Shown: positions 1,747-59,758, counted from the first letter of the stretch. The stretch is 64,000 bases of DNA from an uncultured bacterium (GCA_963749445.1 CAVVMJ010000010.1:43913-107912), one strand, 5' to 3'. Notes: generated by a model from the sequence alone, not told the origin. A program made the numbers and translations.

Positions 1747-4700
1747 TTATCTTCCAACCAATTTCAGAAGCGTTTTGCGCTTTTTTACCACCGCGAACGC
1801 GCCGACCATCAATCCGGCAAAAACAAAAGCGTTGGTATCCGCGCCGGTCTTGGGGGCCACAAGCGCTCCCAAAACCTGCGGCGTGTTGATGTTAATCGTT
1901 ATCGCGTTGCCGTAAGTGTTGGTCATAACGTAATGCAGATTGCTGGCCAAAAAGTACTTAATGCGCACGCGGAACGATTTGCTCACGCTGCCGCCGGCCG
2001 ACACAGTAATGGGCGGATAGTTGATGACATTGCCGGAAAGCGTGCCGCCGCCGTTGTCACTGATGTCCGCGTAAGGCAGAACCTGGGACAAATCATCCGT
2101 GACCACAAAGTTGGTGGCCGGCGAATTGCCGTTATTGGTTACCGTCAAAGTGTAAGTAATATAGTCTTCTTTGGAAGCCGGCTGTGTGGTAGCGTCAACA
2201 TTTTTGGTATCGTTCCAGGCTTTTTTGGCGTATATCAAATTAACATTGCCGCCGAGCACGTTGCCGTTGCCGTTAACGAAGACCCACGCGTCATCCTGCA
2301 CATTCGGCACGCTGTCGCCGCGGGCGCTGGCCGTGTTTTCAATGCTGGTGCCGCTGCCGGCCACAACCTGGGCCTGGAAAGTCGCGGTAACGCTCTGACC
2401 CGTGGAAAGCGAGCCCAAATTCAGGCTGTTGCCATACCAGTTGCTGCCGGAATTATAACCGTTGTTGTAATTATTATTGTTGTAATAACCGCCGCTGACC
2501 TGCGTGCTGCCGGAAATCCATTGCAGGCCGCTTACGCCCGCGTCGGTCAAAACCACATTATTGACGCTGGCGTTGCCCGTGTTGGTCACGGTAATTTGGA
2601 ACTGTACGGTATCATTCACGTTGGCGCTTACGGTTTTTTGGAACGAGCCGCCCGCCGTAATATTCCTGACCATTTTTTGGATGCCCAACTGCACGTACTG
2701 GTTATACGGTACCGGGTTATTATAGTAGTAAGGATTACTGTTGGACGACGCGTAGTAATAATAGGTGTTGGTCGTATTAGTTACGTTGTGGGAATCCGTA
2801 GTATTGGTTGTGGTATTGGTTACATTGTGGGAGTCTGTGGTATTCGTAATGTTATGCGAATCGGTGCTGTAATTTATATTATGCGAATCCGAGGTGTTGA
2901 TAATATTATTGCAGGAATTGTTTATGCAGGTATTGATGTTGTTTGTATTGCCGCCGTTGTTGTTATTTGAAGCCTGCAAAGTTATGGCGATAGTAGAAAG
3001 CAGCTGGTTGCAGCTTGCATCATACATCTTAAATACATAACTGCCGCCGGCCTGCAAATCGGAAACCGTTTGCTGGCCGTTGGCACCGCCGCTGGCAAAA
3101 GCCAGTTCCGCGGAAGAGCCGGGGTTGATGCGGGTTATGCGGATTTGGTTGGTGCCCGATGAAGCCCAGCTTATGGTTGAGCTGTAAGCGCTCCCGTTAA
3201 TCAGCAAAGCAGGCGCGGAATAGTTTAAGGTTGCGCCGGTATTGGAGGTACAAACCTGCGGCTGCTGCGAGACATGGACGCTGCAGTTAGCAGATTGGCT
3301 GCCGCTGGTCACGGTTACTGTTTTGGTGCCGATTGAAGTGTAAGTGACTCCGCTGAGCGTATTGCCCAAGGCCGTGCCGTAATTGGCGCCGGGATCGGAC
3401 CAGTTATAACTGCCGTTGCCGCCGGTAGCGGTAAAGTTTACGGCTTGATTGGTTTGGACGCTGGTCGGGTTGGCAAAGCAGGTTAAAGTTTGCGGCTGCT
3501 GGATGACGATGTTAACAACCGGACAACTCACGCCGTTGACTGTGGTTATGCCGCTGGTTACGCCGGCATTAAAGCGGGTAAGAAAAGTCGTGCCCTGGCC
3601 GGCAAACGGCACGGCGCTTTGCGCCGACCAAGTGTAGGTCTGGCTGGAAACAGGGTTGCTAATAGCGTAAGAGACCTGGTCAGACGGCGCATTGCTGCTG
3701 CCGTTTACTGTGGAAGGGGAAGTTAACTGGCAAATCGGCTGATTATTAACAGGAGCAGAACATTTAGCCGAAGCCTGGGCGCTGGCATTGGCCTGGGCCT
3801 GAGCCTGGGCTTGCTGCTGGGCCTGGCTTTGCGCCTTGTTTTGCGCGTCGGCTTGGCTGACGTTGCTGGTGGCTGTGGCGCTGGCCGAAGCCGAGGCCGA
3901 AGCCGAGGCAAACGAGCCGTCAGGGCAGGAAGCGCTGGCCGAAGCCGTGGCGCTGGCCGTGGCAGTTGCCGTAAACGTTCCGGGCTGAACCTGGATATTA
4001 ATAGTCACTATCGGACAGCTCACACCGTTAACGGTAACCGTTCCGGTAGATACACCGGCGTTAAAGCGGGTAAGAAAAGTCGTACCCTGGCCGGCAAACG
4101 GCACGGCGCTTTGCGCCGACCAAGTGTAGGTCTGGCTGGAAACAGGGTTGCTAATAGCGTAAGAGACCTGGTCAGACGGCGCATTGCTGCTGCCGTTTAC
4201 TGTGGAAGGGGAAGTCAACTGGCAAATCGGCTGATTAGCCGGAGCCTGGTTAACCAAAACCGAACAATTGGCGCGCTGGCCGTCAATGCTGCTGACGCTG
4301 GCGGTCTGCGTGCCAACGACACTGTAGTTAACGGTATAACTGGTATAATCCGCCGAAGCGTTCGCCGAAGAAGCGTTGCTGGTAGACCAGCCATAAGCGC
4401 GGCTGGTATCGCCGCCACTGGCGGTAAATACAACCGGTTGACCAAGAGTAATCGAGGCAACGTTGGCGCTGCAGGTTAAAGTCGGAAACTGAGTAGGAGT
4501 GCTACCGCAGCTCAAACTCGGCACAGGCACGTATTTATCAATTTGCGGATAACCATCCGCGGTTAAATAGAAATGTACGGTTTTACCGGGAGTCAACCAC
4601 GGGGCGTCTTGTCCTCCGAAGGGGCTGTTGGCAGCCGCTGCAAATAAACTAGGCTGGCCGGTGGAAGTATTAACTACATAGACTTTAACATTGTTTAAAT

Positions 4701-6642
4701 TGGAAGATGTCCAAGTCACGGTGCCGTCATACAAACATTGATTATAAAGCTGGTTGCCTACCTGGACGTTCAAAGTGGCACTACCGGCCGGAGGAGTGGG
4801 CGTACTGCCGCAGCTCAAAGCGGGCACAGGGACATACTTGTCGATTTGCGGATAATTATCGGCAGTCAAGTAAAAATGGACGCTGGTGCCCGGGGTCAAC
4901 CACGGCGCATCCTGGCTGCCACTTACAGCCGCGGCAAACAAACTCGGCTGGCCGGTTGAAGTATTAACCACGTAAACTTTAACATTGTTTAAATTAGAGG
5001 AAGACCAGGTGACAGTGCCATCATATAAACACTGGTTAGCAACCTGGCTGTTAACCTGAACATTTAACGTAGCGGTGCCGGCCGGAGGAGTGGGCGTACT
5101 GCCGCAGCTCAAAGCGGGCACATTGACGTATTTATCAATTTGCGGATAGTTGTCCGCGGTTAAGTAAAAGTGGACAGACGTGCCCGGAGTAAGCCACGGA
5201 GCATCGGAATTCCCCGAAACGGCGGCGCCGACTAAGCTGGGCTGGCCGGTGGAAGTGTTAACCACGTAGACTTTAACATTGTTTAAATTGGAAGATATCC
5301 AAGTCACGGTGCCGTCATATAAACACTGACCGGAAACCTGTCCGTTAAGATTAACATCCAAAGTAGCTGTGCCGGCCGGAGGGGTAGGCGTACTGCCGCA
5401 GCTCAAAGCAGGCACGCTGACATACTTGTCAATTTGCGGGTAACCATCCGCAGTTAAGTAGAAATGGGTGCTGGTGCCGGGAGTGAGCCACGGCGCATCC
5501 TGGCTGCCACTTACAGCCGCGGCAAACAAACTCGGCTGGCCGGTGGAAGTGTTAACCGCGTAAATTTTAACATTATTTAAATTAGAGGAAGACCATGTGA
5601 CAGTACCATCACCCAAACACTGGCCACTAACCTGGCCGTTGTAGCTTACATCCAAAGTGGCGGTGCCGGCCGGAGGAGTAGGCGTACTGCCGCAGCTCAA
5701 AGCAGGCACGCTGACATACTTGTCAATCTGCGGATAACCATCGGCGGTTAAATAAAAATGGGTGGATGTGCCGGGAGTGAGCCACGGGACATCTGCGTTG
5801 CCGCTTGTAGCGGCGCCAACCAAACCAGGCTGGCCGGTGGAAGTGTTAACCGCGTAAACTTTTACATTATCTAAACCTGAAGAAGTCCATGTTACAGTAC
5901 CATCGCCCAAACACTGGCCACTAACCTGGCCGTTATAGCTTACGTCCAAAGTGGCGGTGCCGGCCGGAGGGGTGGGCTGGGTTTGGCCGGTAACGGTAAC
6001 GGTAAAATAAATCAGTCTGATATAACCAAAACACGCCGGCTGGTCAGGCAAAGAAGCCGAAGAGTTTACAAAATTCAAGCTGCCCTGCCCAATGGGATCC
6101 ATATTCGGATCGCCGGTTCTCGCGCGCCATTGCTGGCCGCTGGCCGAAAGCGTTGTGCCGGAAAGCGTATTAATGTACATCTGGCCGTTTAAGGAATTGG
6201 AAGTGTTGTTAGCCGTAACCGAGGCGGAAATCATGTGACTGTCCGATGTGTTACTGTCAACCGTGGCGCTGACCTGTTCGCCGGTAGCCGCGGGGCCGCC
6301 CACGACCGCGCCGTTGTGCACATATAAAACAAATTCCACCTGGTCGCCGGGCTGGGCGCTAATCATATTATTTTCCGTATCGCCCTGCCAATCGCCGACA
6401 GCTTGCCCGTTGCGCACAATCTGGGCGCGCATAAACGGGGCGTCATTACAGCCGCCGCCGGTATGGGAAATTGAGTAAGGATTTAAAATCGGCGTGCTAA
6501 AAGTCGGGGTGCAGTCGGTTTCCGCGTGCAAAGAATTAATAACCCGCGGAGCCGCGGCCAAAACCGTCAAAGATACCGCAAAAAAACTCACCGCTAAAAC
6601 TGCGCCGACCTTGAAATTTAAAACCTGAGTATATTTTTTCAT
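1747..6642 (-). CDS. giant secreted tandem-repeat cell-surface protein (1631 aa) with sortase-type sorting signal
   Basis: N-terminal signal peptide with hydrophobic core. Five 98-aa (294-nt) tandem repeats. A duplicated roughly 90-aa module, Ser/Ala and Asn/Thr low-complexity tracts, and DUF11-like TVTNNGN segments. C-terminus APKTGAD, then a hydrophobic stretch, then KKRK. Confidence 0.75.
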   Translation of the reverse strand: MKKYTQVLNFKVGAVLAVSFFAVSLTVLAAAPRVINSLHAETDCTPTFSTPILNPYSISHTGGGCNDAPFMRAQIVRNGQAVGDWQGDTENNMISAQPGDQVEFVLYVHNGAVVGGPAATGEQVSATVDSNTSDSHMISASVTANNTSNSLNGQMYINTLSGTTLSASGQQWRARTGDPNMDPIGQGSLNFVNSSASLPDQPACFGYIRLIYFTVTVTGQTQPTPPAGTATLDVSYNGQVSGQCLGDGTVTWTSSGLDNVKVYAVNTSTGQPGLVGAATSGNADVPWLTPGTSTHFYLTADGYPQIDKYVSVPALSCGSTPTPPAGTATLDVSYNGQVSGQCLGDGTVTWSSSNLNNVKIYAVNTSTGQPSLFAAAVSGSQDAPWLTPGTSTHFYLTADGYPQIDKYVSVPALSCGSTPTPPAGTATLDVNLNGQVSGQCLYDGTVTWISSNLNNVKVYVVNTSTGQPSLVGAAVSGNSDAPWLTPGTSVHFYLTADNYPQIDKYVNVPALSCGSTPTPPAGTATLNVQVNSQVANQCLYDGTVTWSSSNLNNVKVYVVNTSTGQPSLFAAAVSGSQDAPWLTPGTSVHFYLTADNYPQIDKYVPVPALSCGSTPTPPAGSATLNVQVGNQLYNQCLYDGTVTWTSSNLNNVKVYVVNTSTGQPSLFAAAANSPFGGQDAPWLTPGKTVHFYLTADGYPQIDKYVPVPSLSCGSTPTQFPTLTCSANVASITLGQPVVFTASGGDTSRAYGWSTSNASSANASADYTSYTVNYSVVGTQTASVSSIDGQRANCSVLVNQAPANQPICQLTSPSTVNGSSNAPSDQVSYAISNPVSSQTYTWSAQSAVPFAGQGTTFLTRFNAGVSTGTVTVNGVSCPIVTINIQVQPGTFTATATASATASASASCPDGSFASASASASASATATSNVSQADAQNKAQSQAQQQAQAQAQANASAQASAKCSAPVNNQPICQLTSPSTVNGSSNAPSDQVSYAISNPVSSQTYTWSAQSAVPFAGQGTTFLTRFNAGVTSGITTVNGVSCPVVNIVIQQPQTLTCFANPTSVQTNQAVNFTATGGNGSYNWSDPGANYGTALGNTLSGVTYTSIGTKTVTVTSGSQSANCSVHVSQQPQVCTSNTGATLNYSAPALLINGSAYSSTISWASSGTNQIRITRINPGSSAELAFASGGANGQQTVSDLQAGGSYVFKMYDASCNQLLSTIAITLQASNNNNGGNTNNINTCINNSCNNIINTSDSHNINYSTDSHNITNTTDSHNVTNTTTNTTDSHNVTNTTNTYYYYASSNSNPYYYNNPVPYNQYVQLGIQKMVRNITAGGSFQKTVSANVNDTVQFQITVTNTGNASVNNVVLTDAGVSGLQWISGSTQVSGGYYNNNNYNNGYNSGSNWYGNSLNLGSLSTGQSVTATFQAQVVAGSGTSIENTASARGDSVPNVQDDAWVFVNGNGNVLGGNVNLIYAKKAWNDTKNVDATTQPASKEDYITYTLTVTNNGNSPATNFVVTDDLSQVLPYADISDNGGGTLSGNVINYPPITVSAGGSVSKSFRVRIKYFLASNLHYVMTNTYGNAITININTPQVLGALVAPKTGADTNAFVFAGLMVGAFAVVKKRKTLLKLVGR
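3470..4235 (-). repeat. duplicated roughly 270-nt module (two copies about 490 nt apart) flanking a Ser/Ala/Gln low-complexity tract
   Basis: aagt(t/c)aactggcaaatcggctgatt at about 3721 and 4212. The protein segment APANQPICQLTSPSTVNGSSNAPSDQVSYAISNPVSSQTYTWSAQSAVPFAGQGTTFLTRFNAGV occurs twice. Confidence 0.8.
4497..6003 (-). repeat. five tandem 294-nt (98-aa) repeats inside the surface protein gene
   Basis: Near-identical DNA blocks starting at about 4500, 4801, 5097, 5391 and 5688 (cgtactgccgcagctcaaagc...). The protein repeats begin TPTPPAGTATL and end PALSCGS. Confidence 0.85.
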
Positions 6643-6691
6643 ATGTCCTAAATGTTAGCTTACCAAAGCTAAGTTTATAATTTAACTTATT

Positions 6692-6720
6692 ATACTACAA
6701 CTTTTCCAACCTTTTGTCAA
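6692..6720 (-). promoter_or_regulatory. sigma70-like promoter for the surface protein gene
   Basis: On the minus strand: TTGACA, 17-nt spacer, TAGTAT, located about 50 nt upstream of the ATG in an AT-rich 340-nt intergenic region. Confidence 0.4.
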
Positions 6721-6980
6721 CCTCACTATTTAAAAAATCGCTTAAATAAAAGGATAAAACTTTTTTATGCTTTAACTGTGTGTAAATATTACGGCTACTT
6801 AAAACATATTTATCTGCTTTTCATTGTATTATAACCGTCATTTAATTTCCACTAATGTTTTGATTGATGGAAATTAAGCAACGGTTAATTTTAATGAGAT
6901 CTGCAGGGCTGGAGGGTGAATGGTTCATGATTTCTCATGTCCACTCTCCCCGTCCAGCCCGACAAAGCATATGAATCGTG

Positions 6981-8489
6981 TTATTTGCAGGCGCCCGGCG
7001 TTCCCGGGGCCAAAATGGGATTACAGGTTGTGACCGGTGCCCCCGGCGGCTTGGCTGGCTCCGTTTGCGTCGTTGTTGTTGTACCGCCGCCGTGATGCGT
7101 GGCAGCGATAATCGCGCCGGCCGCGGCAATCGCGACTACAATCGCAATCCACCACTTGCTACCAGCCGCCTTGAGCAGACCCTCACAGTGGATAACGCAC
7201 CCATCGTCGGTTGTTACATCAAGGGCAAACTGAACTTCCTTCTTCTTGTTCAGCTCGGCTGTTGTAACGAGCAGCGAGTTATCGCTGCCTGTGACGTTAC
7301 CGTTTACTCCCCACCTAATGGACTTTATCTGCCGACCCTTGAGTTGGGCCGGGGAAATGAAATCAGAGATGTTGAGCCGAATGCCGTCCTTCCCAACCCT
7401 AAAAGTCTGGTTGGGCTTGGAACAAGTCGGGCAAACCGGTTTCGAAGGTAGTGGAGGTGGTGAAGCTTCAACCCTCTTGACCACTACCGCAAACGGGCAG
7501 CTCGATCGCCGACCGAACTGGTCGGTAAGATCAAACGAGCCGGGATAAGTCCCGGGAGCGAAGTTGGTGATCTTAGGGCCGAAGGCGAATACATCTTCGC
7601 GCCCGTCGAGATCAGGGTTAGTGGACTGCACCTCCCCTTTCACCAGCCATTCAGCCTTCAGCCTGAGGTTTTCCGCCGCCCCAATAGCCCTCCCCCTAAA
7701 CTCAAGCACCTGTTCAGGAGTCAAGGAAAAAGGCGGCGTGTCAGTGGTAATGAGGTCGCCGTTCTGCCAAAGTCCGCAGGTTGCGAACCCGGGCCGTGTA
7801 ACTGGCGGCGTCCCTGGTTCGCTTGGCGTGGTCTCAAACCACACTTCCACGAACACATATCCGAAGTTGCCACAAATGAACACCAGATTGATAACGACAG
7901 CTTCGGATTCGATGAAGAATTCACAAGACTGCGTTCTGGCGGCCAGCTCCGGCGGAACCTCCAACTTCTCGTTCACCCCTGTACCATTCGCCATGATCAC
8001 GAACCTGCTCGGTTCGAGTAGCTTACTTGGCTTGCATGCTCCGGCTTCGATCTTTTTCTTGAACTCTTCCTTAGCCTCTGCCGACAAATTCAAACGTTTA
8101 TCTATGGCTTCAAAGAGCTCATCTTGCTGGTTCACGGTCGGCGGCATATTGACGATCGGGGTGGACGTAATGGGATCCCGGCGCCATTCGTGCTGCATGA
8201 CTGTCCAGTCCATGTCTGCGAGCCGCTTCATTTCGGGATCAACGTTCCCCTGCCTTTGCAGGTACGCGTCGATCTCCTCACGGGTACGCAGAACATGGAA
8301 GTAAGTTACCTTGCCATCCTCCACCTTCTTGTAGTCATAGCGCCGGCCGGAGGCTGTCACGCCACCGCCGTTCTGGAGCGTCGTAGGCAGTTGGGTTTGC
8401 GGTTGCTGGGCGAGCACGGACTGAGGTCCGGTCACCATCAACAACGCCAAAATCAAGGCCAGTATCTGGCCCACGTTCATACGATTCAT
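6981..8489 (-). CDS. secreted/membrane-anchored protein of unknown function
   Basis: Likely start MNRMNVGQILALILALLMVTGPQSVLA (signal peptide) with a GGAGG ribosome-binding site upstream. C-terminal TM segment WWIAIVVAIAAAGAIIAA followed by a Gly/Thr/Pro-rich tail. GC content is higher than in neighbouring genes. Confidence 0.45.
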   Translation of the reverse strand: MNRMNVGQILALILALLMVTGPQSVLAQQPQTQLPTTLQNGGGVTASGRRYDYKKVEDGKVTYFHVLRTREEIDAYLQRQGNVDPEMKRLADMDWTVMQHEWRRDPITSTPIVNMPPTVNQQDELFEAIDKRLNLSAEAKEEFKKKIEAGACKPSKLLEPSRFVIMANGTGVNEKLEVPPELAARTQSCEFFIESEAVVINLVFICGNFGYVFVEVWFETTPSEPGTPPVTRPGFATCGLWQNGDLITTDTPPFSLTPEQVLEFRGRAIGAAENLRLKAEWLVKGEVQSTNPDLDGREDVFAFGPKITNFAPGTYPGSFDLTDQFGRRSSCPFAVVVKRVEASPPPLPSKPVCPTCSKPNQTFRVGKDGIRLNISDFISPAQLKGRQIKSIRWGVNGNVTGSDNSLLVTTAELNKKKEVQFALDVTTDDGCVIHCEGLLKAAGSKWWIAIVVAIAAAGAIIAATHHGGGTTTTTQTEPAKPPGAPVTTCNPILAPGTPGACK

Positions 8490-8679
8490 TTCATTAGGCC
8501 TCCTTGGCCCTTTTGATTCTGTTTGGATTTTTTCTCGGCCTCGGGCCGAATTTGTACTTCCTACTTGGTTGGCCCGAGTTGGGTACCGAGTAGATAAGAA
8601 TCGCCAAAAAATAATTAAGGGAAAACCCAAAATAAGGGTTTTCCCTCCTCAAATTATTTGGTAAACCTAATCCACCCGA

Positions 8680-8721
8680 TAATGATTGACTTTTTGACGG
8701 CCGTCAAAAAGTCAATCATTA
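8680..8721. repeat. perfect 21-bp-arm palindrome between the sortase gene and the downstream gene
   Basis: TAATGATTGACTTTTTGACGG|CCGTCAAAAAGTCAATCATTA with no loop. Confidence 0.7.
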
Positions 8722-8740
8722 CTAAAATATTTTAAATTTA

Positions 8741-10255
8741 TTAATTTTCCACTTGCGTTAGCTGGCCAAACACCACCAAACGATATTTCGTGGAACCAAC
8801 CGGCCAGCAGGTGGACAAAGCCACCACGCTCTGGCTGCTGTTTTTAAACTGCGCCTGGTCGCTCGGGCTGTATTGCTGGCGGCCGACCACCACATAATGA
8901 AGCACGTGGGTCTTGCCGTCTGTGGTGGTTACGGTAATGCTGAACGAAGTGTCGTCGGCCAGTTTATCCAGCTGGGTAAAAACGTGATTATAATTGCCTT
9001 TGGCCCAGGAATAATTGCTGGAGTGGCCTGAAATGTAAGTAGTGCCGATTTCGCCGGGCAAAGCCGTGCCGGGATAATGGATGACGCCGCTCTGCAAATC
9101 AGTATTAAAATTTTTGGGGTCCGTGCTCCAAATTAAAGGCGCGTCAATTTTTAATGACGGGATGGAAAGTTTACCCGGAATATTTTGGTTGATATCCAAA
9201 TTTGAACCGCCTAGTTGCTGCCCGGCAGGCAAAGCCACTGGCGGATTCTGCACGGTTGAATTTTGAACGGTCGGATTCTGATTCTGCGCAGTTGAATTCT
9301 GCGCGGCCGGCTGCCCGGCGGCTTGCGAACTGCCGTTTACAGACGGCGCAACCTGTGCCGTTGGCGTACCAAAACCATAATTGCCGACTACGGCGCCGGT
9401 TTGCGCCCCGGCCACCTGGCCGCTTTTTTGCATTTGCGCCAAAGTCTGGCGGTTGGAAATGACTTCAAAATCAAAATACTTATCAATAATCGCCTGCTGG
9501 GCCGAGGTCAGCTTTAAACCGCTGGTCGGGTCAATGCCGGCCTGTAGTGCGTCGCTGTCAGACATGCCGAGACCCATGGTATCGTAAGACTTGGGGTTCA
9601 AATTCAAAAGATATTTCTGGAAGTTGGACAAGCCGTTTCCGGAATTATCCGCGTTGGGATCCAAAACTGATGCTTGGGAAACATCATAATAAAACTGGCC
9701 AATCCATTGCTGATAGCCGGACAGGTTCCCCTGCTGCAGCTGGGCCAAAGAATTCTGCTTTGGCGTTTCGGCCTGGGCTTGGGGTTTTGTCAAAAAACCA
9801 AAATTTAAACTCGCGCCGCTGAAAAAATAAAGATAAACAAACAGGGCCACGGTAAACACCGCCACGTAAGGCGTAACGTTTTTAACGAGGTTCAAAATTT
9901 TATTGCCGCCGGAAGGCGGAGACTGATGCAAATCGCTAATATGTACCGGATCCGGTCCGTGATTAACCGCTTCATCATGCGCGGAGCCAACGCCGGGCAA
10001 ATCGCCAAAAACGGAGTGCTTGTCAGCGTTGTCCAACACCTCGCCCAAATCCACACCCGCGCCTTGGGCAAACAAACTCTTGCCCTCCGGCGCCTTGCCG
10101 AAACCGTCTTTATAACCGGGATCAACGCCGGCGCTGGACGGAGGCGTTTGAGGCGTTAGAGAGAGCGGAATGGGCATACCGAACAACTTGGCAACTTCCG
10201 GAGTTGCCGCCGGGTATTTTTTGGCCAAATTGTCTGTAGGATTATTGTCGCTCAT
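8741..10255 (-). CDS. sortase-family transpeptidase with long N-terminal membrane anchor and low-complexity linker
   Basis: C-terminal sortase domain with His in ISGHSS, active-site Cys in VALSTCWP (TLXTC-type) and Arg in RLVVFG. TM segment near residue 135. Confidence 0.7.
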   Translation of the reverse strand: MSDNNPTDNLAKKYPAATPEVAKLFGMPIPLSLTPQTPPSSAGVDPGYKDGFGKAPEGKSLFAQGAGVDLGEVLDNADKHSVFGDLPGVGSAHDEAVNHGPDPVHISDLHQSPPSGGNKILNLVKNVTPYVAVFTVALFVYLYFFSGASLNFGFLTKPQAQAETPKQNSLAQLQQGNLSGYQQWIGQFYYDVSQASVLDPNADNSGNGLSNFQKYLLNLNPKSYDTMGLGMSDSDALQAGIDPTSGLKLTSAQQAIIDKYFDFEVISNRQTLAQMQKSGQVAGAQTGAVVGNYGFGTPTAQVAPSVNGSSQAAGQPAAQNSTAQNQNPTVQNSTVQNPPVALPAGQQLGGSNLDINQNIPGKLSIPSLKIDAPLIWSTDPKNFNTDLQSGVIHYPGTALPGEIGTTYISGHSSNYSWAKGNYNHVFTQLDKLADDTSFSITVTTTDGKTHVLHYVVVGRQQYSPSDQAQFKNSSQSVVALSTCWPVGSTKYRLVVFGQLTQVEN

Positions 10256-10339
10256 AAATCTAAAAATGCCTTATTTATGATGATTTTACTAAATATTAAC
10301 CGGTACGTTAACATCACATATTAGCACATTTATATATAT

Positions 10340-10368
10340 TTGTCAAGTCCATAGTTTTGATGTAAAAT
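10340..10368 (+). promoter_or_regulatory. sigma70-like promoter for the CAP-domain gene
   Basis: TTGTCA, 17 nt, TAAAAT, with the ATG about 10 nt downstream. Confidence 0.4.
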
Positions 10369-10378
10369 ACCTTTAGGT

Positions 10379-11518
10379 ATGCTATCAAAATCCCCATCTG
10401 AACAAACTTTAACAGCCAGGCGCAAGCCACTGCCGACCCACGGCTTTTTACTGATTTTACTGATAATCTTTGTTGCCTTCAAGCTTGTATTGGCACTGGC
10501 GCTACCGCAAAGCGCGGTTTTTGCCTCTGACCTTACCATAGACAACATCCTTTCGGCTGTAAATAGCCAACGGAGCCAGCGCAACCTTGTTACGCTCAAC
10601 ACGGACAGCCGCTTAAGCAGCGCCGCGCAAAGCAAAGCCGACGATATGCAGGCGCGACACTATTTCGCGCACGTTGATCCGGACGGCAATTATATTTGGC
10701 CAAAAATCGTGGCCGCCGGTTACACGCCTTATTTGGAACTCGGGGAAAACTTGGCCATTGAATTTTACGATACAGATAGTTTGATATCCGCCTGGATGAA
10801 CAGCCCAACGCACCGCGCCAACATTTTAAACGACGGTTTCCAGGACCAGGGCATGGGTCTGGACTTTGGCGACGCTAATAGCGGCCAATACCATTCGGTG
10901 GTGGCCAATACCTTTGGAACGCTGCTGTTGGCAAAAAAAGTAGAGGCCGCACCTCAGACGACCAAGTTTACCCCGACTACAGCGTCGGGGCCGGCCGTGT
11001 CCGGCGCCAGCGAAAAAACCCCGACGCAAACGGCTCCAAAAAATACTGCCCAACCCAAACCCAAGGCCCCGCCTACCGCCCCGCCCGCTGCCGCCCAACC
11101 GGAGCCAGAGGCAACTTCGGCTCCAGCCACAACCACGGCACAAAATAATCCCGCCCCTGCTCCGGAACCTGTTGCTAATCCGGTTAATCCCCGCGGCGAT
11201 TATGCCATGGGCCTGAGCCCAAGCCAACCCGAAGCCAGTACGGCCCAAGCGCAAACTTCCCAACCGGTTTCGTCATCTTCACCCCCCGCCCTGACCACGG
11301 CGCCGGCCATAGTGAACACCGAATCCCAAAACCCGCTGGCAAACTTCCAAACCAACCGCTATTTTACGTTGGCCTTTGGCATCGTCTTATTTTTATTTTT
11401 ACTCACCGACCTGCGCGGCATAATGAAACAAAAATCCGAACTCGTCGGCAAAAAAATCAACAACCTGACGCTCCTGTTTTTGGCTTTGGTCGTGATTGCG
11501 ATGATGTACTGGCTGTAA
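10379..11518 (+). CDS. CAP/SCP/PR1-like domain protein (YkwD-like) with Pro/Ala/Thr-rich linker and C-terminal membrane anchor
   Basis: HYFAHVDPDG ... WMNSPTHRANIL motifs typical of the CAP superfamily. N-terminal TM/signal segment and C-terminal TM. Confidence 0.7.
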   Translation: MLSKSPSEQTLTARRKPLPTHGFLLILLIIFVAFKLVLALALPQSAVFASDLTIDNILSAVNSQRSQRNLVTLNTDSRLSSAAQSKADDMQARHYFAHVDPDGNYIWPKIVAAGYTPYLELGENLAIEFYDTDSLISAWMNSPTHRANILNDGFQDQGMGLDFGDANSGQYHSVVANTFGTLLLAKKVEAAPQTTKFTPTTASGPAVSGASEKTPTQTAPKNTAQPKPKAPPTAPPAAAQPEPEATSAPATTTAQNNPAPAPEPVANPVNPRGDYAMGLSPSQPEASTAQAQTSQPVSSSSPPALTTAPAIVNTESQNPLANFQTNRYFTLAFGIVLFLFLLTDLRGIMKQKSELVGKKINNLTLLFLALVVIAMMYWL

Positions 11519-11576: not shown

Positions 11577-12564
11577 TTAAATCTTTAAATCATTCAATCT
11601 CTCAATTGGACTTATCATCGCATAATTGCACCCGTCCAGAATCCGCGCGCGGAAGTTGGTTACGGAAATCACCATGGCCGCAACCAAAACACTAATCAAT
11701 AAAATCTCAATAAAACTTTGGCGGGTCAAAGCGCCGTCCAGCCGATAATGGAACACGCCCCAGAACAGGTTGTAAGCCGCGGTCATAAAAATAGCGCCTG
11801 TAAAATAATTGTAGCCCCAGCGCACGTACACCAATTGGCCGATTATGGCCATTAATACGGCAATAATCAGCGCCGAAGCGATAGTGTAAAAATTCACCCG
11901 GCGGTGCTGGTAAAGCGCCTGGTAAATCAACAGAAAAGTAAAACACAACACTTCAACGCTGAAATACCAGGCCGGCAGGCAATTATAGCGGAGCCAGGAC
12001 AAAGCGGCCGCGTAAAGTACGCCGACCGCGTAAATTTTGACCACGGTTAAAACCACAAAAATGTCGCGGTCCACGATTTCCCTGCGCCGGTAAAAAATTT
12101 CCTTTAAGTACCAATAATAAAGTAATTAGCGCCGCGGATGACAAAAGCAGGACGGTCTGCTGGATTTTGACAAAACCGAAATTGACGTAAAACAGGGACA
12201 CCGTGGCCCAAAAAATAAATCCGGGCAAAAGCAAAAAATGCAGCCATTGCCGAACGTATGACCAGCGGCGCAGGTGCTCAAAGCGATCCCAAAAAGCGGA
12301 AAAAATTATTTGCCCGTTGCGGTGCAACCTGGAAATTGTGTTTTGGTGCTTGCGTTTGGCCCGCTGCCAGCTGCCGCGCTTTTTAAAATGCAAATCAAAG
12401 AAAAAAACAATATTAAAAATCAAGTATACAAATATCCAAAAAGCCACATTCAAATAAGTGGCCGGCTGGTTAAGATTTAAAATGTAAACCAGCGCTTCAA
12501 AACCACCCAGCACGGCCAGGGCGATGACAAAAAGGGCAACGGTTTTTTGGGTTTTTTGGGTCAT
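11577..12564 (-). CDS. polytopic membrane protein, apparently one gene split by a frameshift near 12075-12125
   Basis: ORFs 11983..12564 and 11577..12074 are both multi-TM. The frame of the downstream ORF stays open upstream as LLYYWYLKEIFYRRREIV, while the upstream ORF tail becomes nonsense. Confidence 0.4.
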
Positions 12565-12640: not shown

Positions 12641-13372
12641 TTAATTCGTAACATTCGGATCGGATAATGCTTTGCGCCGCATCAGCTCTCCCGCTCGGAA
12701 AAGTGATTCAAAAGTGCCGGCGTCTATCCATTCCCCTGTTACCAAATCTACTTTCAGCTCGTCTTTTTTTAAATACCAATTGTGGATTTCGGTAATTTCC
12801 AACTCGCCGCGCTCCGAAGGCTTAGCCTGTTTGGCCGCCTCGGCTACGCGGTTGTCAAACAAGTAAAGCCCCGTAATGGCGAAATCCGACAAATATTTTT
12901 TTGGTTTTTCCTCAATTTTTACGGCATTCATTTTGCCGTCAAATTTGACCACGCCAAAACGCTGCGGGTCCGGAACTTTTTTGGCGAATATGTGGCCGCC
13001 GCTTTTAAACTTGCGGATGGTGGCCGAAAAATCGTCTTCAAAAATATTGTCCCCCAAAATCATACAAACGTTGTCGCTGCCAATGAAGTCTTTACCGATA
13101 ATAAACGCGTGCGCCAGGCCTTCGGGCTTGTCCTGGATTTCGTAAGCGATGCGGCAGCCAAATTCCCGGCCCGATCCTAGCAACTTCATATAATCGCCGG
13201 CGTGGTCCGGCGCGATTATGACCAAAATATCCTTAATACCGGCCTGCAGCAGCGTTTGCAGCGGATACAAAATCATCGGCTTGTCGTAAACCGGCAGTAG
13301 CTGTTTGGAAGTGACTTTGGTCAGCGGGTGCAGGCGCGTGCCTGTCCCGCCAGAAAGAATAATGCCTTTCAT
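12641..13372 (-). CDS. rfbA: glucose-1-phosphate thymidylyltransferase
   Basis: MKGIILSGGTGTRLHPLT...LPVYDKPMI N-terminus, diagnostic for RmlA. Start chosen at ATG 13372. Confidence 0.85.
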   Translation of the reverse strand: MKGIILSGGTGTRLHPLTKVTSKQLLPVYDKPMILYPLQTLLQAGIKDILVIIAPDHAGDYMKLLGSGREFGCRIAYEIQDKPEGLAHAFIIGKDFIGSDNVCMILGDNIFEDDFSATIRKFKSGGHIFAKKVPDPQRFGVVKFDGKMNAVKIEEKPKKYLSDFAITGLYLFDNRVAEAAKQAKPSERGELEITEIHNWYLKKDELKVDLVTGEWIDAGTFESLFRAGELMRRKALSDPNVTN

Positions 13373-13407
13373 ATCAACTTTATTTAATAATATGCGTTGC
13401 CGCAAAC

Positions 13408-13767
13408 CTATCTGCCCATTTCCCAAATGCTGATTAATATCCCGACAAAACATAATAACAAGAATAGCCAAATGAATGGCTTAAGGATCTTGCGCGCGGT
13501 AGTTTCTTTAACTTTTGAAACCGTGTGCTGCCGTAAGCCATCCTTCAAAATCTCCCGGGTCTGGTCAATAAATTGTTTTTTGACATATACACCCCAAGTC
13601 TCAAAGGGCAATACCGCATTGCCCCGGACTACGGACAAAGCTTCGGTTGCGTCATCTTGCTTTATAAGGGCATCGATGTTGGCCTGCTTAAGCAAAGCTT
13701 GCGCTATCTGAGCTTCGGGTCGACCAGTTGCCATAACTAAACAATATTGGGAAAAATCAATTGCCAT
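13408..13767 (-). CDS. small protein with C-terminal TM anchor (hypothetical)
   Basis: 119-aa ORF filling the rfbA-rfbD gap; C-terminal hydrophobic segment. Confidence 0.35.
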   Translation of the reverse strand: MAIDFSQYCLVMATGRPEAQIAQALLKQANIDALIKQDDATEALSVVRGNAVLPFETWGVYVKKQFIDQTREILKDGLRQHTVSKVKETTARKILKPFIWLFLLLCFVGILISIWEMGR

Positions 13768-14605
13768 ATTTGTCTGTTAAAAATTCTTTTAACGCCGCCT
13801 GCCATGGACGAAGTGGCGGCAGTTTGGTATTTAACAAAACCGCTTTTTTCGGCCGTTTGGCCTGACGTAAAAAGTCCGCAGACTTCACCGGAATCAAATT
13901 GATTTTTTTGCCCGCGATGTTAAAAATTTCTTTGGCAAAATCATACCAAGAAGCCTGCCCGCTGTTGATAATATGGTAAATGCCGTAAGGCAGCTTTTTG
14001 GTAATCAAACTTTCCACCGCTTTGGCCAAGTCAGCAACATAAGTCAAACTGTTGATTTCGTCATTTACCGCCTTAATTGTAGCAGTTTTTTCCGAAAGAC
14101 CCAACATCACATCTATAAAACTCTTTTCGCGATACTTGCTTTCCGCCTCCTGGCCGAACAAAACCGAAGTCCTGATAAGATAATACCTCAGACAGTTAGC
14201 CTGCAATAATTTCTCCCCTTCGTATTTGGACTTCGCATATACTGATATCGGATTGGGCTTGTCGGACTCTCGGTATTCGCCTTTGACTCCGTCAAACACA
14301 TAATTCGTGGAAAAATGCACCAACGGGATGCTGAATTTTTTGCAAGTCTTGGCAATATTGCCCACAGCTGCGGCGTTTATTGAAAAAGCCTGGTCCTTTT
14401 CTTTTTCCGCTCCGTCAACGTTATTATAGGCCGCGCAATTAATCAAGGCCGCGGGTTTTTGCCCGAGCGCCGCGATTTTATTTTCCAAATCTTCAGCGTT
14501 GACAATATCAATTTCCTGCCTGTCCCAACCCAAAGCGCGCGAAAAAGTTCTTTTCAATTCTCCTCCCAACATTCCCTGCGACCCTAAAATCAATATCGTG
14601 CCCAT
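13757..14605 (-). CDS. rfbD: dTDP-4-dehydrorhamnose reductase
   Basis: MGTILILGSQGMLGGEL Rossmann start; RmlD-like length and motifs. Confidence 0.75.
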   Translation of the reverse strand: MGTILILGSQGMLGGELKRTFSRALGWDRQEIDIVNAEDLENKIAALGQKPAALINCAAYNNVDGAEKEKDQAFSINAAAVGNIAKTCKKFSIPLVHFSTNYVFDGVKGEYRESDKPNPISVYAKSKYEGEKLLQANCLRYYLIRTSVLFGQEAESKYREKSFIDVMLGLSEKTATIKAVNDEINSLTYVADLAKAVESLITKKLPYGIYHIINSGQASWYDFAKEIFNIAGKKINLIPVKSADFLRQAKRPKKAVLLNTKLPPLRPWQAALKEFLTDKYGN

Positions 14606-14648: not shown

Positions 14649-15182
14649 CTAGATAAAATTAAACTTTTTCCTTAAATCTTTATCACTGTCCATTTCTTCA
14701 ACTTTCAAAATTCGGATAAAAAGCAGCAGGCCTGTTTCTCTCAAATACATAATCGCCTCTCGGTTTAAAGGATACGGGCTGACATAAACGCTGTGCTGCA
14801 ATTTCTTAAAACCGTTTTTCTTGAGAAGGCTTCGAAAAAAATTGCGTTTATCTTCACTTTCTTCGGGAATATCAAACATTATTATTCGCCATTTGCCATC
14901 CCATTTTTTTGGCCGTTCCGGTAATCGAGCTTTTGACAACAATGCTTCAAGCTCGCCTTTTGCTGTCAGTCTTATAAAACGTTCATTATCTTTATTTACA
15001 TATTTAATCCAGCCTTTCGCCGCCAAATAACTGACAATTTTATAAAAATTTTTGTTGTCACCCAGCGGCTGCCCCTTATATAACCGCTTGCGCATTTCGT
15101 GGGGAGTAACCAAAAATGTATCCCCCGCAACCAGCAGGGACATCAATATTTTGCTAGTTAAAGTAAAATCTTTTTTTGCCAT
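14649..15182 (-). CDS. PaaX-like transcriptional regulator (winged HTH plus Cas2-like domain)
   Basis: N-terminal winged-HTH (FIRLTAKGELEAL). C-terminal WRIIMFDIPE...LQHSVYVS matches the Cas2/PaaX-middle-domain fold signature. Confidence 0.5.
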   Translation of the reverse strand: MAKKDFTLTSKILMSLLVAGDTFLVTPHEMRKRLYKGQPLGDNKNFYKIVSYLAAKGWIKYVNKDNERFIRLTAKGELEALLSKARLPERPKKWDGKWRIIMFDIPEESEDKRNFFRSLLKKNGFKKLQHSVYVSPYPLNREAIMYLRETGLLLFIRILKVEEMDSDKDLRKKFNFI

Positions 15183-15213: not shown

Positions 15214-16227
15214 TTAGATAAGATTTTTGCCGTATTGCTGCTTGTAATATTTCTGGTAATCCCCGCTCTTTACTCTTTTCCACCAACCCCGGTTGCTCTG
15301 ATACCAGTCCAAAGTTTTTTGCAAAGATTCGTCCAATCCGTATTTAGGCTGCCAGCCGAGCTCGCGGGTAATTTTGGAATGATCCAACGCGTACTTTTGA
15401 TCATGGCCCGGACGGTCGGCAACGAATTCTATCATTCCATCACTCTGCTTCATCATGACCAATAATTTCCTGATGATTTCCAAATTGCTGAATTCCGGAT
15501 TGTTAGGCCCGATAAAATAAGTCTCTCCCGCTTTGCCTTTTTCTAATATTGTTTCTATGCCGCTGCAGTGGTCTTCCACATAAAGCCATTCACGGATTTG
15601 GTTGCCGGGTTTATAAACCGGAACTTTTTTGCCTTCCAATAAATTGGTAATGGCCAGCGGGATTAGCTTTTCCGGAAACATATACGGGCCGATGTTATTG
15701 GCGCAATTGGAGATGGTTATAGGCAAACCATAGGTGTAATAATAAGCGCGGACAAGATGATCACTGGCCGCTTTGCTTGCCGAATACGGGCTGCGCGGAT
15801 TGTACGGACTCTCCTCTGTCCACTTTGTTTTGGAATCAAGGGGCAGCGATCCAAATACTTCATCAGTAGATACATGATGGAAGCGCTTTACCTGATATTT
15901 GCGGGCGGCTTTAAGCAACTCATGCGTACCAATAACATTTGTCCGGATAAAATCATCAGGGCCGGATATTGAACGGTCAACGTGCGTTTCGGCTGCAAAA
16001 TGGACAACAACCTCAACGCCCTGCATCGCCTTATTGACAGCCGCGGGGTCGCAAATGTCGCCTTTGATAAAAGTTATCTTATCCTTAACCGCAGCCAAAT
16101 TTTCCAAATTGCCGGCATAGGTTAATTTATCCAGCACGACAATTTTGTCGTCCGGATGATTCTTGACCCAATAATGGACAAAGTTGGAGCCAATAAACCC
16201 CGCCCCGCCGGTAATAAGAATCTTCAT
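15214..16227 (-). CDS. rfbB: dTDP-glucose 4,6-dehydratase
   Basis: MKILITGGAGFIGSNF...; YxxxK in YSASKAASD; 337 aa. Confidence 0.9.
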   Translation of the reverse strand: MKILITGGAGFIGSNFVHYWVKNHPDDKIVVLDKLTYAGNLENLAAVKDKITFIKGDICDPAAVNKAMQGVEVVVHFAAETHVDRSISGPDDFIRTNVIGTHELLKAARKYQVKRFHHVSTDEVFGSLPLDSKTKWTEESPYNPRSPYSASKAASDHLVRAYYYTYGLPITISNCANNIGPYMFPEKLIPLAITNLLEGKKVPVYKPGNQIREWLYVEDHCSGIETILEKGKAGETYFIGPNNPEFSNLEIIRKLLVMMKQSDGMIEFVADRPGHDQKYALDHSKITRELGWQPKYGLDESLQKTLDWYQSNRGWWKRVKSGDYQKYYKQQYGKNLI

Positions 16228-20110: not shown

Positions 20111-20951
20111 TTTGGTTTTATTGATCAGTTATATATAAGCAATGTAGCGTGCCGATTCATCGGCGTCCGAAAACCGCCCATAAATGGGCACGCTACACTT
20201 ATTCATTATATAAAACATTTGTCAAAAAGACAAAAAAAGCTCTCTGCCAGATCAGAGAGCAACGGTACCCGGAAGCCCGCGTGCGGCCCCGGGATTTTTC
20301 TACGATACGCAACCGTTCAAAAACAAACGGCTGGTTCCCGCGGCAGATGCTGGCAACCGCGAAAAATTCATAATTGCGGCCCGGAGCTTTCGCCCCGGAC
20401 TGTGCCCCATGTGGGGCTCCTTCTCCTTGGTATTGTATACCCGCTTGCCAGTTCAGGCGGGGTGATGCAAAAGGGCAGAAGCCCCAACTACGCCCAAAAT
20501 ATCACCGATATTACTGGTTGGGCCTGCCTGATCAAACGCTCCCGGAGCTAAATGGAGTTAAAAAATATCAGGGCAGAAGCGCCTGCAGTCCTCGGCCGTC
20601 AACCGAGTCCTTTGGCGATTTTTTGCCCCTATTTCGTCCAAACCATCAGGGGCCAATGGATTGCACGTTGGGCTATCGGCTCAGCAGGTTGACGGACATC
20701 GTCGCACTCATAGACGAAACTCCCTTCTTCATGTGTTCCAATTGTTTTTCCGCAGGCCTTTTTCCTGCGGCGATTGGTTTAACCAGATATTACTCTCTCT
20801 CTCTGTTTTTGTCAACATTTTTGCCATTTTTACAATTTTGTTGTAAAATACTTTTATCATTGATTTTTAACAGCCCTACCGACTGTTTATCGGACGAGGG
20901 CTATCCTCAGAGGCCGATAAATCGGCAAACTACACTGGGGTGAAAGCAAAT

Positions 20952-41509: not shown

Positions 41510-42386
41510 ATGCGGAAAAAATATTCCTCTTTTTTAACCAGTTTGGCGGCGGCGGTTATTGTTATGCCGGTTTTTTTGGCGCAAACGGCGGCTGCGCAAA
41601 CCGTTAACAGCTCACGCAACTGGGCGGGTTATGTGGCTCAAAGCGGGCCGTACACCTCGGTCAGCGGTTCCTGGGGTTGTACCAGCAGTAAGCGGCGCGG
41701 GATCAACATCAGCCGACGCAGAGTGGGTCGGCATCGGCGGCGTCAGCTCCCCCGATTTAATCCAAAGCGGCACCCAGGCAATTACGGACACCAACGGACA
41801 AATTACATACCAGGCCTGGCTGGAAACTTTGCCGCAGGTCTCGCAATTCATCCCTGTTGCCGTCAAACCCGGCGACAGCGTAAGCGCGTCCATTACCCAA
41901 ACCTCGACCAACCAGTGGCAAATAGTTTTTAATGATTTAACCTCCACCCAAACTTTCCAGACAACTGTATCATACGTCTCTTCCCAATCTTCAGCAGAAT
42001 GGATAGTGGAAGCGCCGGCCTTGCGCGGCGGATTTTTGCCCCTGGATAATTTTGGCACAATCCAATTCAGCGGCGGCTTGGCAACGGCTAACGGCCAAAC
42101 TCAAACCATCGCGGGATCCGGCGCCGCGATTATTAACATGCTCAACAACAGCCAACAGGCATTGGCCAATGTTTCGGCTTTGGATGGTTCCGGCCAAAGC
42201 TTTACCGTAACCCGCACTTCTGCCACCGCCTCACCGCCGACCGGCCGCTACATTATTTCCCGCGGCCGCACTTTCCGCCGCGGCGGCAGTGGCGTCAACC
42301 AGCGCACGACCTGGCCGTGGGGTTTTGGCGGCAATGGTTTGAGAAATAATAACCGGATGATGTTTAGGTTTTCGTTTGATAGATAA
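41510..42386 (+). CDS. secreted peptidase G1 (eqolisin/scytalidoglutamic peptidase)-like protein, with a frameshift in a G4 run near 41672-41675
   Basis: Signal peptide; SRNWAGYVA, AEWVGIGG and QSSAEWIVEAP motifs of the G1 family. The N-terminal 50 aa lie in the frame of ORF 41510..41932 and the rest in 41559..42386. Confidence 0.55.
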
Positions 42387-59711: not shown

Positions 59712-59758
59712 TTGTATGGAATAATCTAAAAGGCTCCAATCTATATTTTAAACCAATT

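Follow-up and report, generated by a model that had tools for sequence, protein, structure and literature searches.

A predicted membrane-anchored sortase and a giant APKTG-tailed surface protein form a probable cognate pair in Patescibacteria

Here, we analyzed a stretch of 64,000 nucleotides from an uncultured bacterium (GCA_963749445.1 CAVVMJ010000010.1:43913-107912; hereafter the window), whose source is an ultrasmall, Doudnabacteria-like member of the Patescibacteria, with a focus on a sortase gene (8741-10255) and on the gene of a giant secreted protein that is its candidate substrate (1747-6642). Both open reading frames (ORFs) are real at these coordinates and lie on the same minus strand, separated by a single gene (a 549-aa ORF whose probable true start is an ATG at 8492). 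An earlier note on this sequence had proposed that a sortase and a candidate substrate with an APKTG signal share one locus, the substrate gene lying two genes downstream on the same strand; the order of the genes is as it described, and the ORFs, the sortase match, the sorting signal, and the synteny reported below bear out the association itself. Neither a second sortase nor another real gene with a sorting signal was found across the 64 kb. Among the other genes of the window are those of a D-Ala-D-Ala carboxypeptidase, of an SLT lytic transglycosylase, and of a DsbA-like oxidoreductase, the first two of which suggest that the organism very probably makes peptidoglycan.

Profile, alignment, and structural model confirm the 8741-10255 product as a membrane-anchored sortase, with a predicted transpeptidase activity. 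Its residues 363-499 match the Pfam family Sortase (PF04203, peptidase C60) at 69.4 bits against a cut-off of 26.6, over profile positions 1-124 of 125, and His411 (GHSSNY), Cys483 (LSTCWP), and Arg492 are invariant and in canonical order across an alignment of 21 full-length relatives, with their codons confirmed by translation; the TLxTC signature reads ALSTC in this clade. The AlphaFold2 model built on this 21-sequence family alignment comprises a transmembrane helix (residues 119-145), a helical domain (residues ~165-278), a disordered segment (residues 280-347), and a beta-barrel (residues 361-503) that has the eight-stranded sortase fold and whose strands mostly reach a predicted local distance difference test (pLDDT) score of 74-94. 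When this model was compared with the PDB by Foldseek, the best 50 listed matches were all sortases (E 8e-12 to 2e-9), belonging to classes C, A, E, and D, the best class C matches lying at a root-mean-square deviation of 2.4-3 Å. The picture drawn in the earlier note, namely, a C-terminal sortase domain with His, Cys, and Arg motifs behind a membrane anchor and a long low-complexity stalk, therefore holds for the domain (Pfam score, invariant residues, modeled barrel) as well as for what precedes it (helix 119-145, disorder 280-347); as for the possibility, raised there, that the catalytic Cys and His would be lost on proper alignment, both align and are invariant in the 21 sequences.

The N-terminal 350 residues are specific to the family and without a Pfam match, and consist of a conserved cytoplasmic KKYPxATPEV segment, the transmembrane helix, the helical domain, and the stalk. 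Pfam searches with the N-terminal 120 aa and with the helical domain (residues 156-285) returned nothing meaningful at E≤1, the only match being at chance level (E 0.075, 12.7 bits vs a cut-off of 27). The cytoplasmic motif extends to KKYPxATPEVAxMxGL within the family, and the motif DNSGNGLSNFQKYLLNLNPKSYDT of the helical domain looks by eye like a degenerate form of the bacterial thrombospondin type-3 (Ca-binding) repeat, with Asp turned into Asn or Ser, a likeness that no profile match supports. The nearest homologs are full-length proteins of 45-69% identity from metagenome-assembled Patescibacteria, the named ones being mostly Candidatus Doudnabacteria, and several already carry the annotation "sortase." Since the family profile retrieved only 110 clusters at E≤1e-30 from 1.84 billion representative proteins, the long-form sortase is a small, lineage-restricted family.

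Judged by NCBIfam class-model scores and fold ranking, this lineage-specific clade is placed outside the curated classes A-F, with class C as the nearest. The class C model (NF033745) scores 51.4 bits, below its cut-off of 160, and the SrtD (43.8 vs 140), class D (42.9 vs 165), class E (41.7 vs 160), and class F (22.4 vs 166) models also stay under theirs, when no class A or class B model matched at E≤0.01. Class C pilin sortases come first in Foldseek as well as in a profile search against PDB sequences, by small margins over classes A, E, and D. The class C lid (DP[W/F/Y]) is absent before strand beta1, a region that alignment and model represent as an unconserved disordered linker, and the protein ends 12 residues past Arg492, with no C-terminal membrane anchor. 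Membership of class C itself was ruled out on the profile score and on the missing lid and C-terminal anchor.

The giant protein ends in ...LGALVAPKTGADTNAFVFAGLMVGAFAVVKKRKTLLKLVGR, and the order of elements in ...NTPQVLGALVAPKTGADTNAFVFAGLMVGAFAVVKKRKTLLKLVGR is APKTG, 4 residues, 15 hydrophobic residues, and a basic KKRK tail. This is the three-part sorting signal of a secreted protein (xPxTG, hydrophobic stretch, positively charged tail at the C-terminus), with Ala in place of the canonical Leu at position 1, as the earlier note had recognized; its statement that the protein stops at KKRK has to be corrected, eight further residues following in the translation. The NCBIfam model LPXTG_anchor (TIGR01167) gives 17.8, slightly above its cut-off of 15.9, and the Pfam model Gram_pos_anchor (PF00746) gives 16.5, under its cut-off of 20. 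In 84 nonredundant tails, collected with an [A/P]P.TG pattern that allows only Ala or Pro at position 1, this position is Ala in 96% and Pro in 4%, followed by Pro (100%), Lys at position 3 (86%), Thr (100%), and Gly (100%); when the search was left unconstrained, position 1 was Ala in 41/42 tails. Conservation in the 84 tails reaches past the pentapeptide, with (F/Y)(V/I/T) before it, A-(D/E)-T after it, and "NTPQVLG" farther upstream.

Ahead of this signal, two stretches of the giant protein match the Pfam family DUF11 (PF01345) at 58.7 bits against 24.6, a family that has recently been renamed CLIPPER and established as a CnaA-like stalk domain with an intramolecular isopeptide bond in fibrillar adhesins (PMC12617251). 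An AlphaFold2 model of the last 331 residues (mean pLDDT 85) shows two beta-sandwich domains, a short unstructured segment containing NTPQVLGALVAPKTGADT, and a transmembrane helix, and its fold matches include C-terminal domains with an isopeptide bond from the AgI/II adhesins of streptococci, as well as the immunoglobulin (Ig)-like domains of PrgB. In the second domain, K1473, D1516/D1517, and N1575/N1579 are at least 90% conserved over 65 aligned C-terminal modules, with a spacing that resembles K715/D748/N806 of 9IFR, which suggests a candidate isopeptide triad. The rest of the protein contains an array of 98-aa repeats, further Cys-pair repeats, and low-complexity tracts; its N-terminal 250 aa have no homolog at E≤1e-3, and Pfam searches of residues 1-225 and 650-1300 gave sub-threshold hits only (PKD_6, 16 bits), with no recognizable adhesive domain. 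Overall, this giant, fast-evolving CLIPPER-domain protein is a probable wall-anchored adhesin. As to its repeats, a near-identical ~90-aa module (ICQLTSPSTVNGSSNAPSDQVSYAISNPVSSQTYTWSAQSAVPFAGQGTTFLTRFNAG...) occurs twice (residues ~870-960 and 1035-1120; window 3400-4400, minus strand) on either side of an (AS)n/(QA)n low-complexity tract, and an N-rich "TDSHN(I/V)TNTT" repeat stands before the CLIPPER domains.

The association of the two genes is not confined to the window. In a sortase-anchored survey, one genome per species was scanned, which gave 78 loci (labeled L and a number) with up to 10 kb on each side, and the DNA downstream of the sortase was searched first for a C-terminal hydrophobic segment with basic residues, whatever the motif, and then with a loose xPx[TSA][GASN] pattern. 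Among the 43 Patescibacteria/Doudnabacteria-type sortase loci whose downstream DNA is long enough, 41 encode on the same strand a protein of 338-2354 aa that ends in AP[K/T/N/R/Q]TG, a transmembrane segment, and a basic tail; at most of the other loci with no detected substrate, the contig stops too early, and in several of them the N-terminus of a giant homolog stands at the contig edge. The neighborhood keeps a conserved order, made of rmlA, a DUF5656-like membrane protein, a divergent CAP-domain protein, the sortase, an optional variable gene, and the APxTG protein. The C-terminal ~320 residues of the substrates are 44-72% identical in most of these loci, when the remainder is barely alignable, and 50 of 60 database homologs of this C-terminal module keep an [A/P]PxTG tail (with 38 APKTG, 2 APTTG, 2 APATG, 1 APQTG, and 3 PPxTG among the homolog tails), LPxTG appearing only in very distant matches. 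A substrate-anchored survey, made of a metagenome scan with the C-terminal module and two contig look-ups, found a sortase upstream in 13 of the 15 loci that were informative, that is, those in which the contig extends 2 kb or more beyond the start of the substrate gene. Moreover, one metagenome-assembled genome (nzgw383, JAHFJJ01; L010 and L053) has two copies of the long-form sortase, one with an APKTG substrate after it, the other with a giant-like gene that is truncated where the contig ends. Because the same arrangement and motif recur in 41/43 informative related loci, it is strongly supported by these comparisons that the pairing is not due to chance and has been kept across ~40 species-level genomes.

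The same scan recovered 17 more distant sortases, from Moranbacteria and other Patescibacteria, which share the GHSSNYxWAKG and LSTCWP motifs and each sit immediately downstream of a small (126-259 aa) secreted protein that ends in LP[A/V/T/K]TG or TPATG. These small proteins are mostly of low complexity and often His/Asp-rich, and their loci are a second type of dedicated sortase-substrate pair in Patescibacteria. At L059-L077 (e.g., L065 4661-5239 and L077 8709-9269), they are mostly Ser/Ala/Gln-rich, with an acidic His-rich block just before LPATG.

In a neighbor-joining tree of the catalytic domains, the enzymes paired with Ala motifs (41) and those paired with Leu motifs (17) split with zero exceptions. 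Since the sister clade is paired with LPxTG on small proteins, the Leu-to-Ala switch tracks the enzyme clade. Four positions are conserved inside each group and differ between them (Ala-group/Leu-group: T405/N, Q469/I, A479/T, and G497/A); Q469/I falls in a short helix of the beta6/beta7 loop in the AlphaFold2 model, and A479/T underlies the signatures ALSTC and TLSTC of the two groups. In SrtA of Staphylococcus aureus, the beta6/beta7 loop forms the pocket for the Leu of the motif. A library of SrtA variants in this loop yielded the mutant F40, whose preference at position 1 is for Ala and which ligates a peptide with APKTG (PMC9126251). From the role of this loop in SrtA and the F40 result, it follows that the direction of the changes between clades fits a shift of specificity, and, as far as sequences can tell, one enzyme clade appears to be specialized on Ala at position 1 and its sister on Leu. 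The suggestion of the earlier note that the variant motif may define the specificity of this sortase subfamily thus gains support from the synteny, from the conservation of the motif, and from an Ala/Leu switch located exactly between sister clades.

On the basis of the observed gene content, catalytic residues, fold, conserved synteny, motif conservation, and covariation of enzyme and motif, we consider it probable that the locus is a cognate sortase-substrate cassette, in which a fibrillar adhesin with a variant motif is handled by the classical sortase pathway, and the best-supported reading is that the sortase has a dedicated or near-dedicated target. The 1631-aa protein would be exported via Sec by its N-terminal signal peptide and retained in the membrane by its C-terminal hydrophobic segment and KKRK tail, when the membrane-anchored sortase would hold its catalytic domain outside the cell on the helical domain and the flexible stalk. 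Cys483, helped by His411 and Arg492, would then cleave APKTG between Thr and Gly to form a thioacyl intermediate, whose resolution by a cell-wall precursor amine (lipid II peptide) would leave the adhesin covalently attached to peptidoglycan, its two isopeptide-type CLIPPER domains forming the part of the stalk nearest to the wall.

Several points weigh against such a dedicated cassette. The two exceptions of the sortase-anchored survey, L056 and L058, show no substrate within 8-10 kb downstream, and in one sub-lineage (L081 and L105, the two exceptions of the substrate-anchored survey) the gene of the APKTG protein (9741-11414 and 6413-10498 of these loci, respectively) lies beside lexA with no sortase within 6-10 kb, so that the linkage to a sortase has been lost at least once. 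The earlier note had held that APKTG-like C-termini present in many proteomes without a sortase would speak against the pairing; unlinked cases do exist, in this single sub-lineage and on contigs that fall short of the whole genome, and they do not overturn it. Dedication to one substrate is, besides, a prediction drawn from the 64 kb window and ~0.8 Mb of locus flanks. With regard to specificity, the Ala/Leu switch is a single split in the tree, and since one event cannot separate cause from shared ancestry by correlation, the substitutions that accompany it may simply have been inherited with the clade and need not determine specificity. Terminator-like hairpins after, and promoter-like sites before, both the sortase and the giant gene make these genes look like neighboring transcription units and not one operon, which suggests that they are not cotranscribed, consensus matches being weak evidence; a single operon was accordingly set aside. 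Finally, the enzymatic activity, the cleavage site, the acyl-enzyme chemistry, the peptidoglycan acceptor, and the discrimination between Ala and Leu are drawn by analogy from the established sortase mechanism.

The main alternative is a general housekeeping sortase that anchors many APxTG, and perhaps LPxTG, proteins genome-wide, its adjacency to the adhesin being a mere conserved neighborhood. In favor of this reading, the enzyme is the only sortase of the window and has an N-terminal anchor and no lid, as in housekeeping sortases, and APKTG proteins unlinked to a sortase exist in the L081/L105 sub-lineage; however, no second sorting-signal protein turns up in the 64 kb analyzed here or within 10 kb on either side at ~40 loci, every recovered APxTG tail sits on one homologous C-terminal module, and the genome with two sortase copies has an APKTG substrate next to one and a truncated giant-like gene next to the other, all of which makes a housekeeping role unlikely. 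The opposite doubt, that the APKTG tail is a plain membrane anchor resembling a sorting signal and that the neighboring sortase works on something else, can invoke the Gram_pos_anchor score and the noncanonical Ala, but is scarcely credible given the frequencies of Pro, Thr, Gly, and Ala in the pattern-selected tails, which lie far above the conservation of the flanking transmembrane segment, the sortase linkage in 41/43 and 13/15 loci, and a motif that switches with the sortase clade.

Other doubts bear on what the adhesin would be attached to. Because the best profile and structural matches are class C pilin sortases, and because the substrate has CnaA-like isopeptide-type domains as in pilins and adhesins (some homologs being annotated "fimbrial isopeptide formation D2"), the enzyme might be imagined to polymerize, joining giant proteins or another subunit through a lysine into a pilus-like fiber instead of attaching them to the wall. 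Pilus-type polymerization is nonetheless very improbable since the lid is missing, no minor pilins accompany the one sortase and one substrate gene of each locus, and the substrate, at 1000-2350 aa, is far larger than pilins; the class C profile score of 51 bits against 160 and the lack of a C-terminal transmembrane segment also disagree with it, and the conserved Lys1473 occupies the position expected for the intramolecular isopeptide lysine of a CLIPPER domain. We give a somewhat better, albeit still slim, chance to an acceptor other than peptidoglycan, such as an S-layer, some other protein of the envelope, or an amine of a wall polymer that contains rhamnose and is produced by the neighboring rml genes, or to release by water and shedding. 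Envelopes of the candidate phyla radiation (CPR) are indeed poorly characterized (PMC5220378). The locus always adjoins the dTDP-rhamnose genes rmlA/rmlD/rmlB, and the sortase has an unusual, conserved extra extracytoplasmic domain. Against this stand the peptidoglycan-processing genes of the window and the fact that nothing here points to a specific alternative acceptor; to our knowledge, all characterized sortases use peptide or lipid II amine nucleophiles.

Starting from the cognate cassette, a bolder version can be formulated, in which the long-form sortases of Patescibacteria would be a distinct class, strictly specific for APKTG against LPxTG owing to its altered beta6/beta7 loop and TLxTC signature, and each enzyme would serve one rapidly evolving giant adhesin that attaches the ultrasmall cell to a host or substrate. 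We regard this version as possible but rather doubtful; if it were true, protein ligation would gain an orthogonal sortase of natural origin, and there would be a way into the question of how CPR cells construct the surface by which they attach.

The remaining features of the locus are gathered with the preceding ones in table 1. The intervening protein has no sorting motif and no Pfam or NCBIfam match. The place of its gene is conserved but the sequence is not, no homolog having been found there in other loci except for a weak and partial match in L038. The protein is unlikely to be a sortase substrate and was rejected as a conserved component of the system for want of a positional sequence homolog beyond this L038 match. 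About 25 loci have a same-strand secreted protein (240-835 aa) between sortase and substrate (L002, L005, L008, L012, L015, L020, L021, L030, L039, and L054 among others), nonhomologous across loci, and most of these proteins share a C-terminus made of KK(x)W, an Ala/Gly-rich transmembrane segment, GGG, and a short Pro/Gly tail that often ends in G.RP or PRGP. This common architecture may be an uncharacterized anchor or sorting module carried by a fast-evolving surface protein.

On the other side of the sortase, the divergent CAP/YkwD-domain protein has a long Pro/Ala/Thr-rich region and C-terminal transmembrane segments, and a second CAP-domain gene lies at 53224-54093 (minus strand). A 177-aa protein with a PaaX central/Cas2-like domain is encoded among the dTDP-rhamnose genes (14649-15182, minus strand). 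The DUF5656-like membrane protein is represented by overlapping ORFs of 193 and 165 aa (11577-12564, minus strand) where relatives have a single ORF of ~320 aa, the aspartyl-tRNA synthetase is split into 469 and 157 aa (20940-22815, plus strand), and a GH1 glycosidase into 161 and 274 aa (28985-30210, minus strand); these three frameshift-split genes suggest either indel errors, perhaps from long-read sequencing, or genuine pseudogenes. Both the sortase ORF and the giant ORF are intact. Farther along the window, some genes are unusual for a reduced genome, namely, those of a Peptidase A4 (scytalidoglutamic-type) protein (41559-42386, plus strand), of an archaeal-type phosphoenolpyruvate carboxylase (PEPcase_2; 59705-61318, plus strand), and of a membrane H+-pyrophosphatase (44199-46268, plus strand) that coexists with a soluble inorganic pyrophosphatase (48172-48759, minus strand).

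Table 1. Features of the locus of the sortase and its candidate substrate, with positions counted from the first nucleotide of the window
Feature	Position	Strand	Basis
Sortase gene, 504 aa: N-terminal cytoplasmic region, transmembrane helix, helical extracellular domain, low-complexity stalk, C-terminal sortase domain	8741..10255	-	ORF, Pfam, homologs, AlphaFold2
Transmembrane anchor, residues 119-145	9821..9901	-	AlphaFold2 helix; conserved hydrophobic block PYxAVFxVGLFLYFFFF in alignment
Conserved helical extracytoplasmic domain, residues ~165-278, invariant motif DNSGNGL(S/T)NFQKYLLNLNPKSYDT	9422..9763	-	Invariant columns D203-P221; pLDDT 83-94
Low-complexity Gln/Asn/Ala/Pro-rich stalk, residues 280-347, variable in length and sequence	9215..9418	-	pLDDT <50; gapped and unconserved in alignment
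Sortase catalytic domain, residues 355-504	8744..9193	-	Pfam, alignment, translation, Foldseek
Catalytic codon His411	9023-9025	-	Translation
Catalytic codon Cys483	8807-8809	-	Translation
Catalytic codon Arg492	8780-8782	-	Translation
Terminator-like hairpin, 12-bp stem then T-run, directly 3' of the sortase stop codon	8617..8647	-	Consensus scan only
Candidate substrate, 1631-aa secreted Ser/Thr/Asn-rich repeat protein, fibrillar-adhesin-like	1747..6642	-	ORF, DUF11/CLIPPER x2, LPXTG_anchor, composition
Sec-type signal peptide, ~first 40 residues (MKKYTQVLNFKVGAVLAVSFFAVSLTVLAAAPRVINSLHA)	6523..6642	-	Assigned by eye from translation, no predictor
Tandem array of 294-nt (98-aa) repeats, 4.6 copies, 80% DNA identity, two Cys per unit	4632..5977	-	Tandem Repeats Finder, Cys spacing
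First C-terminal CLIPPER/DUF11 Ig-like domain, residues ~1319-1456	2275..2688	-	Pfam DUF11; AlphaFold2 strands 19-156 of C-terminal model, pLDDT mostly >90
Second CLIPPER/DUF11 Ig-like domain, most conserved, residues ~1469-1585	1888..2238	-	Conservation over 65 modules, AlphaFold2, fold matches
Sorting pentapeptide APKTG, residues 1596-1600, predicted cleavage Thr1599/Gly1600	1843..1857	-	Translation, motif frequencies
Candidate recognition peptide around APKTG: GAFVAPKTGADT			
Hydrophobic membrane-retention segment AFVFAGLMVGAFAVV, residues 1605-1619	1786..1830	-	Translation; AlphaFold2 helix 303-320 of C-terminal model
Basic tail KKRKTLLKLVGR, residues 1620-1631; relatives mostly end ...KKRKxLxKLIFT	1750..1785	-	Translation, relatives
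Terminator-like hairpin, 12-bp stem, 8 GC pairs, then T-run, directly 3' of the giant-gene stop codon	1700..1727	-	Consensus scan only
Intervening secreted type-I membrane protein: signal peptide (MNRMNVGQILALILALLMVTGPQSVLAQ), C-terminal KWW, Ala/Gly-rich transmembrane segment, GGG, Pro/Thr-rich tail	6981..8492	-	ORF
Divergent CAP/YkwD-domain membrane protein, immediately upstream of the sortase in most related loci	10379..11518	+	Pfam CAP 59 bits, synteny
rmlA (dTDP-rhamnose)	12641-13471		
rmlD (dTDP-rhamnose)	13757-14605		
rmlB-like (dTDP-rhamnose)	15214-16227		

A large part of bacterial diversity belongs to the Patescibacteria, which appear to live attached to other cells and whose display of surface proteins has hardly been studied. 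A sortase is present in more than half of CPR genomes (PMC6744442), and genome papers mention CPR sortases in passing; the opinion of the earlier note that sortase anchoring in such an ultrasmall lineage is little characterized is too broad as regards the presence of sortases. On the specificity of CPR sortases, we found no paper in the searchable literature. In that literature, "APKTG" occurs in a sortase context only as the substrate of the engineered SrtA-F40. The locus offers a testable pair, with a recognition consensus (F/Y)(V/I/T)-A-P-K-T-G-A-(D/E)-T, a catalytic domain of ~150 residues, and a natural LPxTG comparison clade, through which the position-1 specificity of sortases becomes structurally testable. 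It could also supply protein engineering with a naturally orthogonal sortase, APxTG recognition having so far been obtained only with a weak engineered SrtA mutant.

Among known systems, class C sortases (SrtC-1/3 of Streptococcus pneumoniae, 2w1j and 2w1k; SrtC1 of Actinomyces oris, 2xwg) provide the best profile and structure matches, with the same His-Cys-Arg beta-barrel, and their substrates tolerate residues other than Leu at position 1, the pilins RrgA/B/C carrying YPRTG, IPQTG, and VPDTG. Unlike them, the sortase described here has neither a lid nor a C-terminal anchor, carries a 350-residue N-terminal extension, and is paired with a single giant substrate, where class C enzymes have a set of small pilins. 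The actinobacterial class E sortases, whose structures 5go5 and 5go6 are among the Foldseek matches, likewise have a housekeeping-type N-terminal anchor and a motif (LAxTG) in which Ala replaces a canonical residue, but this Ala stands at position 2 in place of Pro, when here it stands at position 1 and Pro is kept in 100% of the tails, and the weak class E score of 41.7 bits leaves the cut-off of 160 unreached.

Closer parallels in organization come from dedicated pairs, such as SrtB and IsdC in S. aureus (NPQTN), the class D sortase of Bacillus anthracis with BasH/BasI (LPNTA), and the single-target sortases of proteobacteria (LP[QK]T[AS]T). As in these pairs, a specialized sortase lies beside its own target with a variant pentapeptide and the pairing is kept across species, here in 41/43 loci; unlike them, the present one involves another sortase clade (with no class B match and 43 bits against 165 for class D), the APKTG motif, a giant CLIPPER adhesin, and another phylum. 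The engineered F40 accepts the same APKTG upon a change in its beta6/beta7 loop, where the natural Ala-clade also differs from its sister (Q469 vs Ile); F40 is, however, a laboratory mutant of low activity and broad specificity, whereas here the family is natural and its specificity is predicted from sequence. On the substrate side, LPXTG fibrillar adhesins (AgI/II SspB/SpaP; CLIPPER/DUF11) likewise combine a signal peptide, a variable N-terminus, tandem Ig-like repeats, CnaA-like CLIPPER domains, and a C-terminal sorting signal, but the APKTG of the present protein comes ~10 residues past the last Ig domain, with no Pro/Gly-rich wall-spanning region, and in a patescibacterial host. Overall, variant pentapeptides served by specialized, co-located sortases are a known theme and the mechanism is that of the familiar sortase pathway; what is new, as far as sequence comparison goes, is a modest variant of it, in which a lineage-specific sortase clade outside the curated classes is associated with a natural Ala motif at position 1 and with a conserved giant-adhesin partner.

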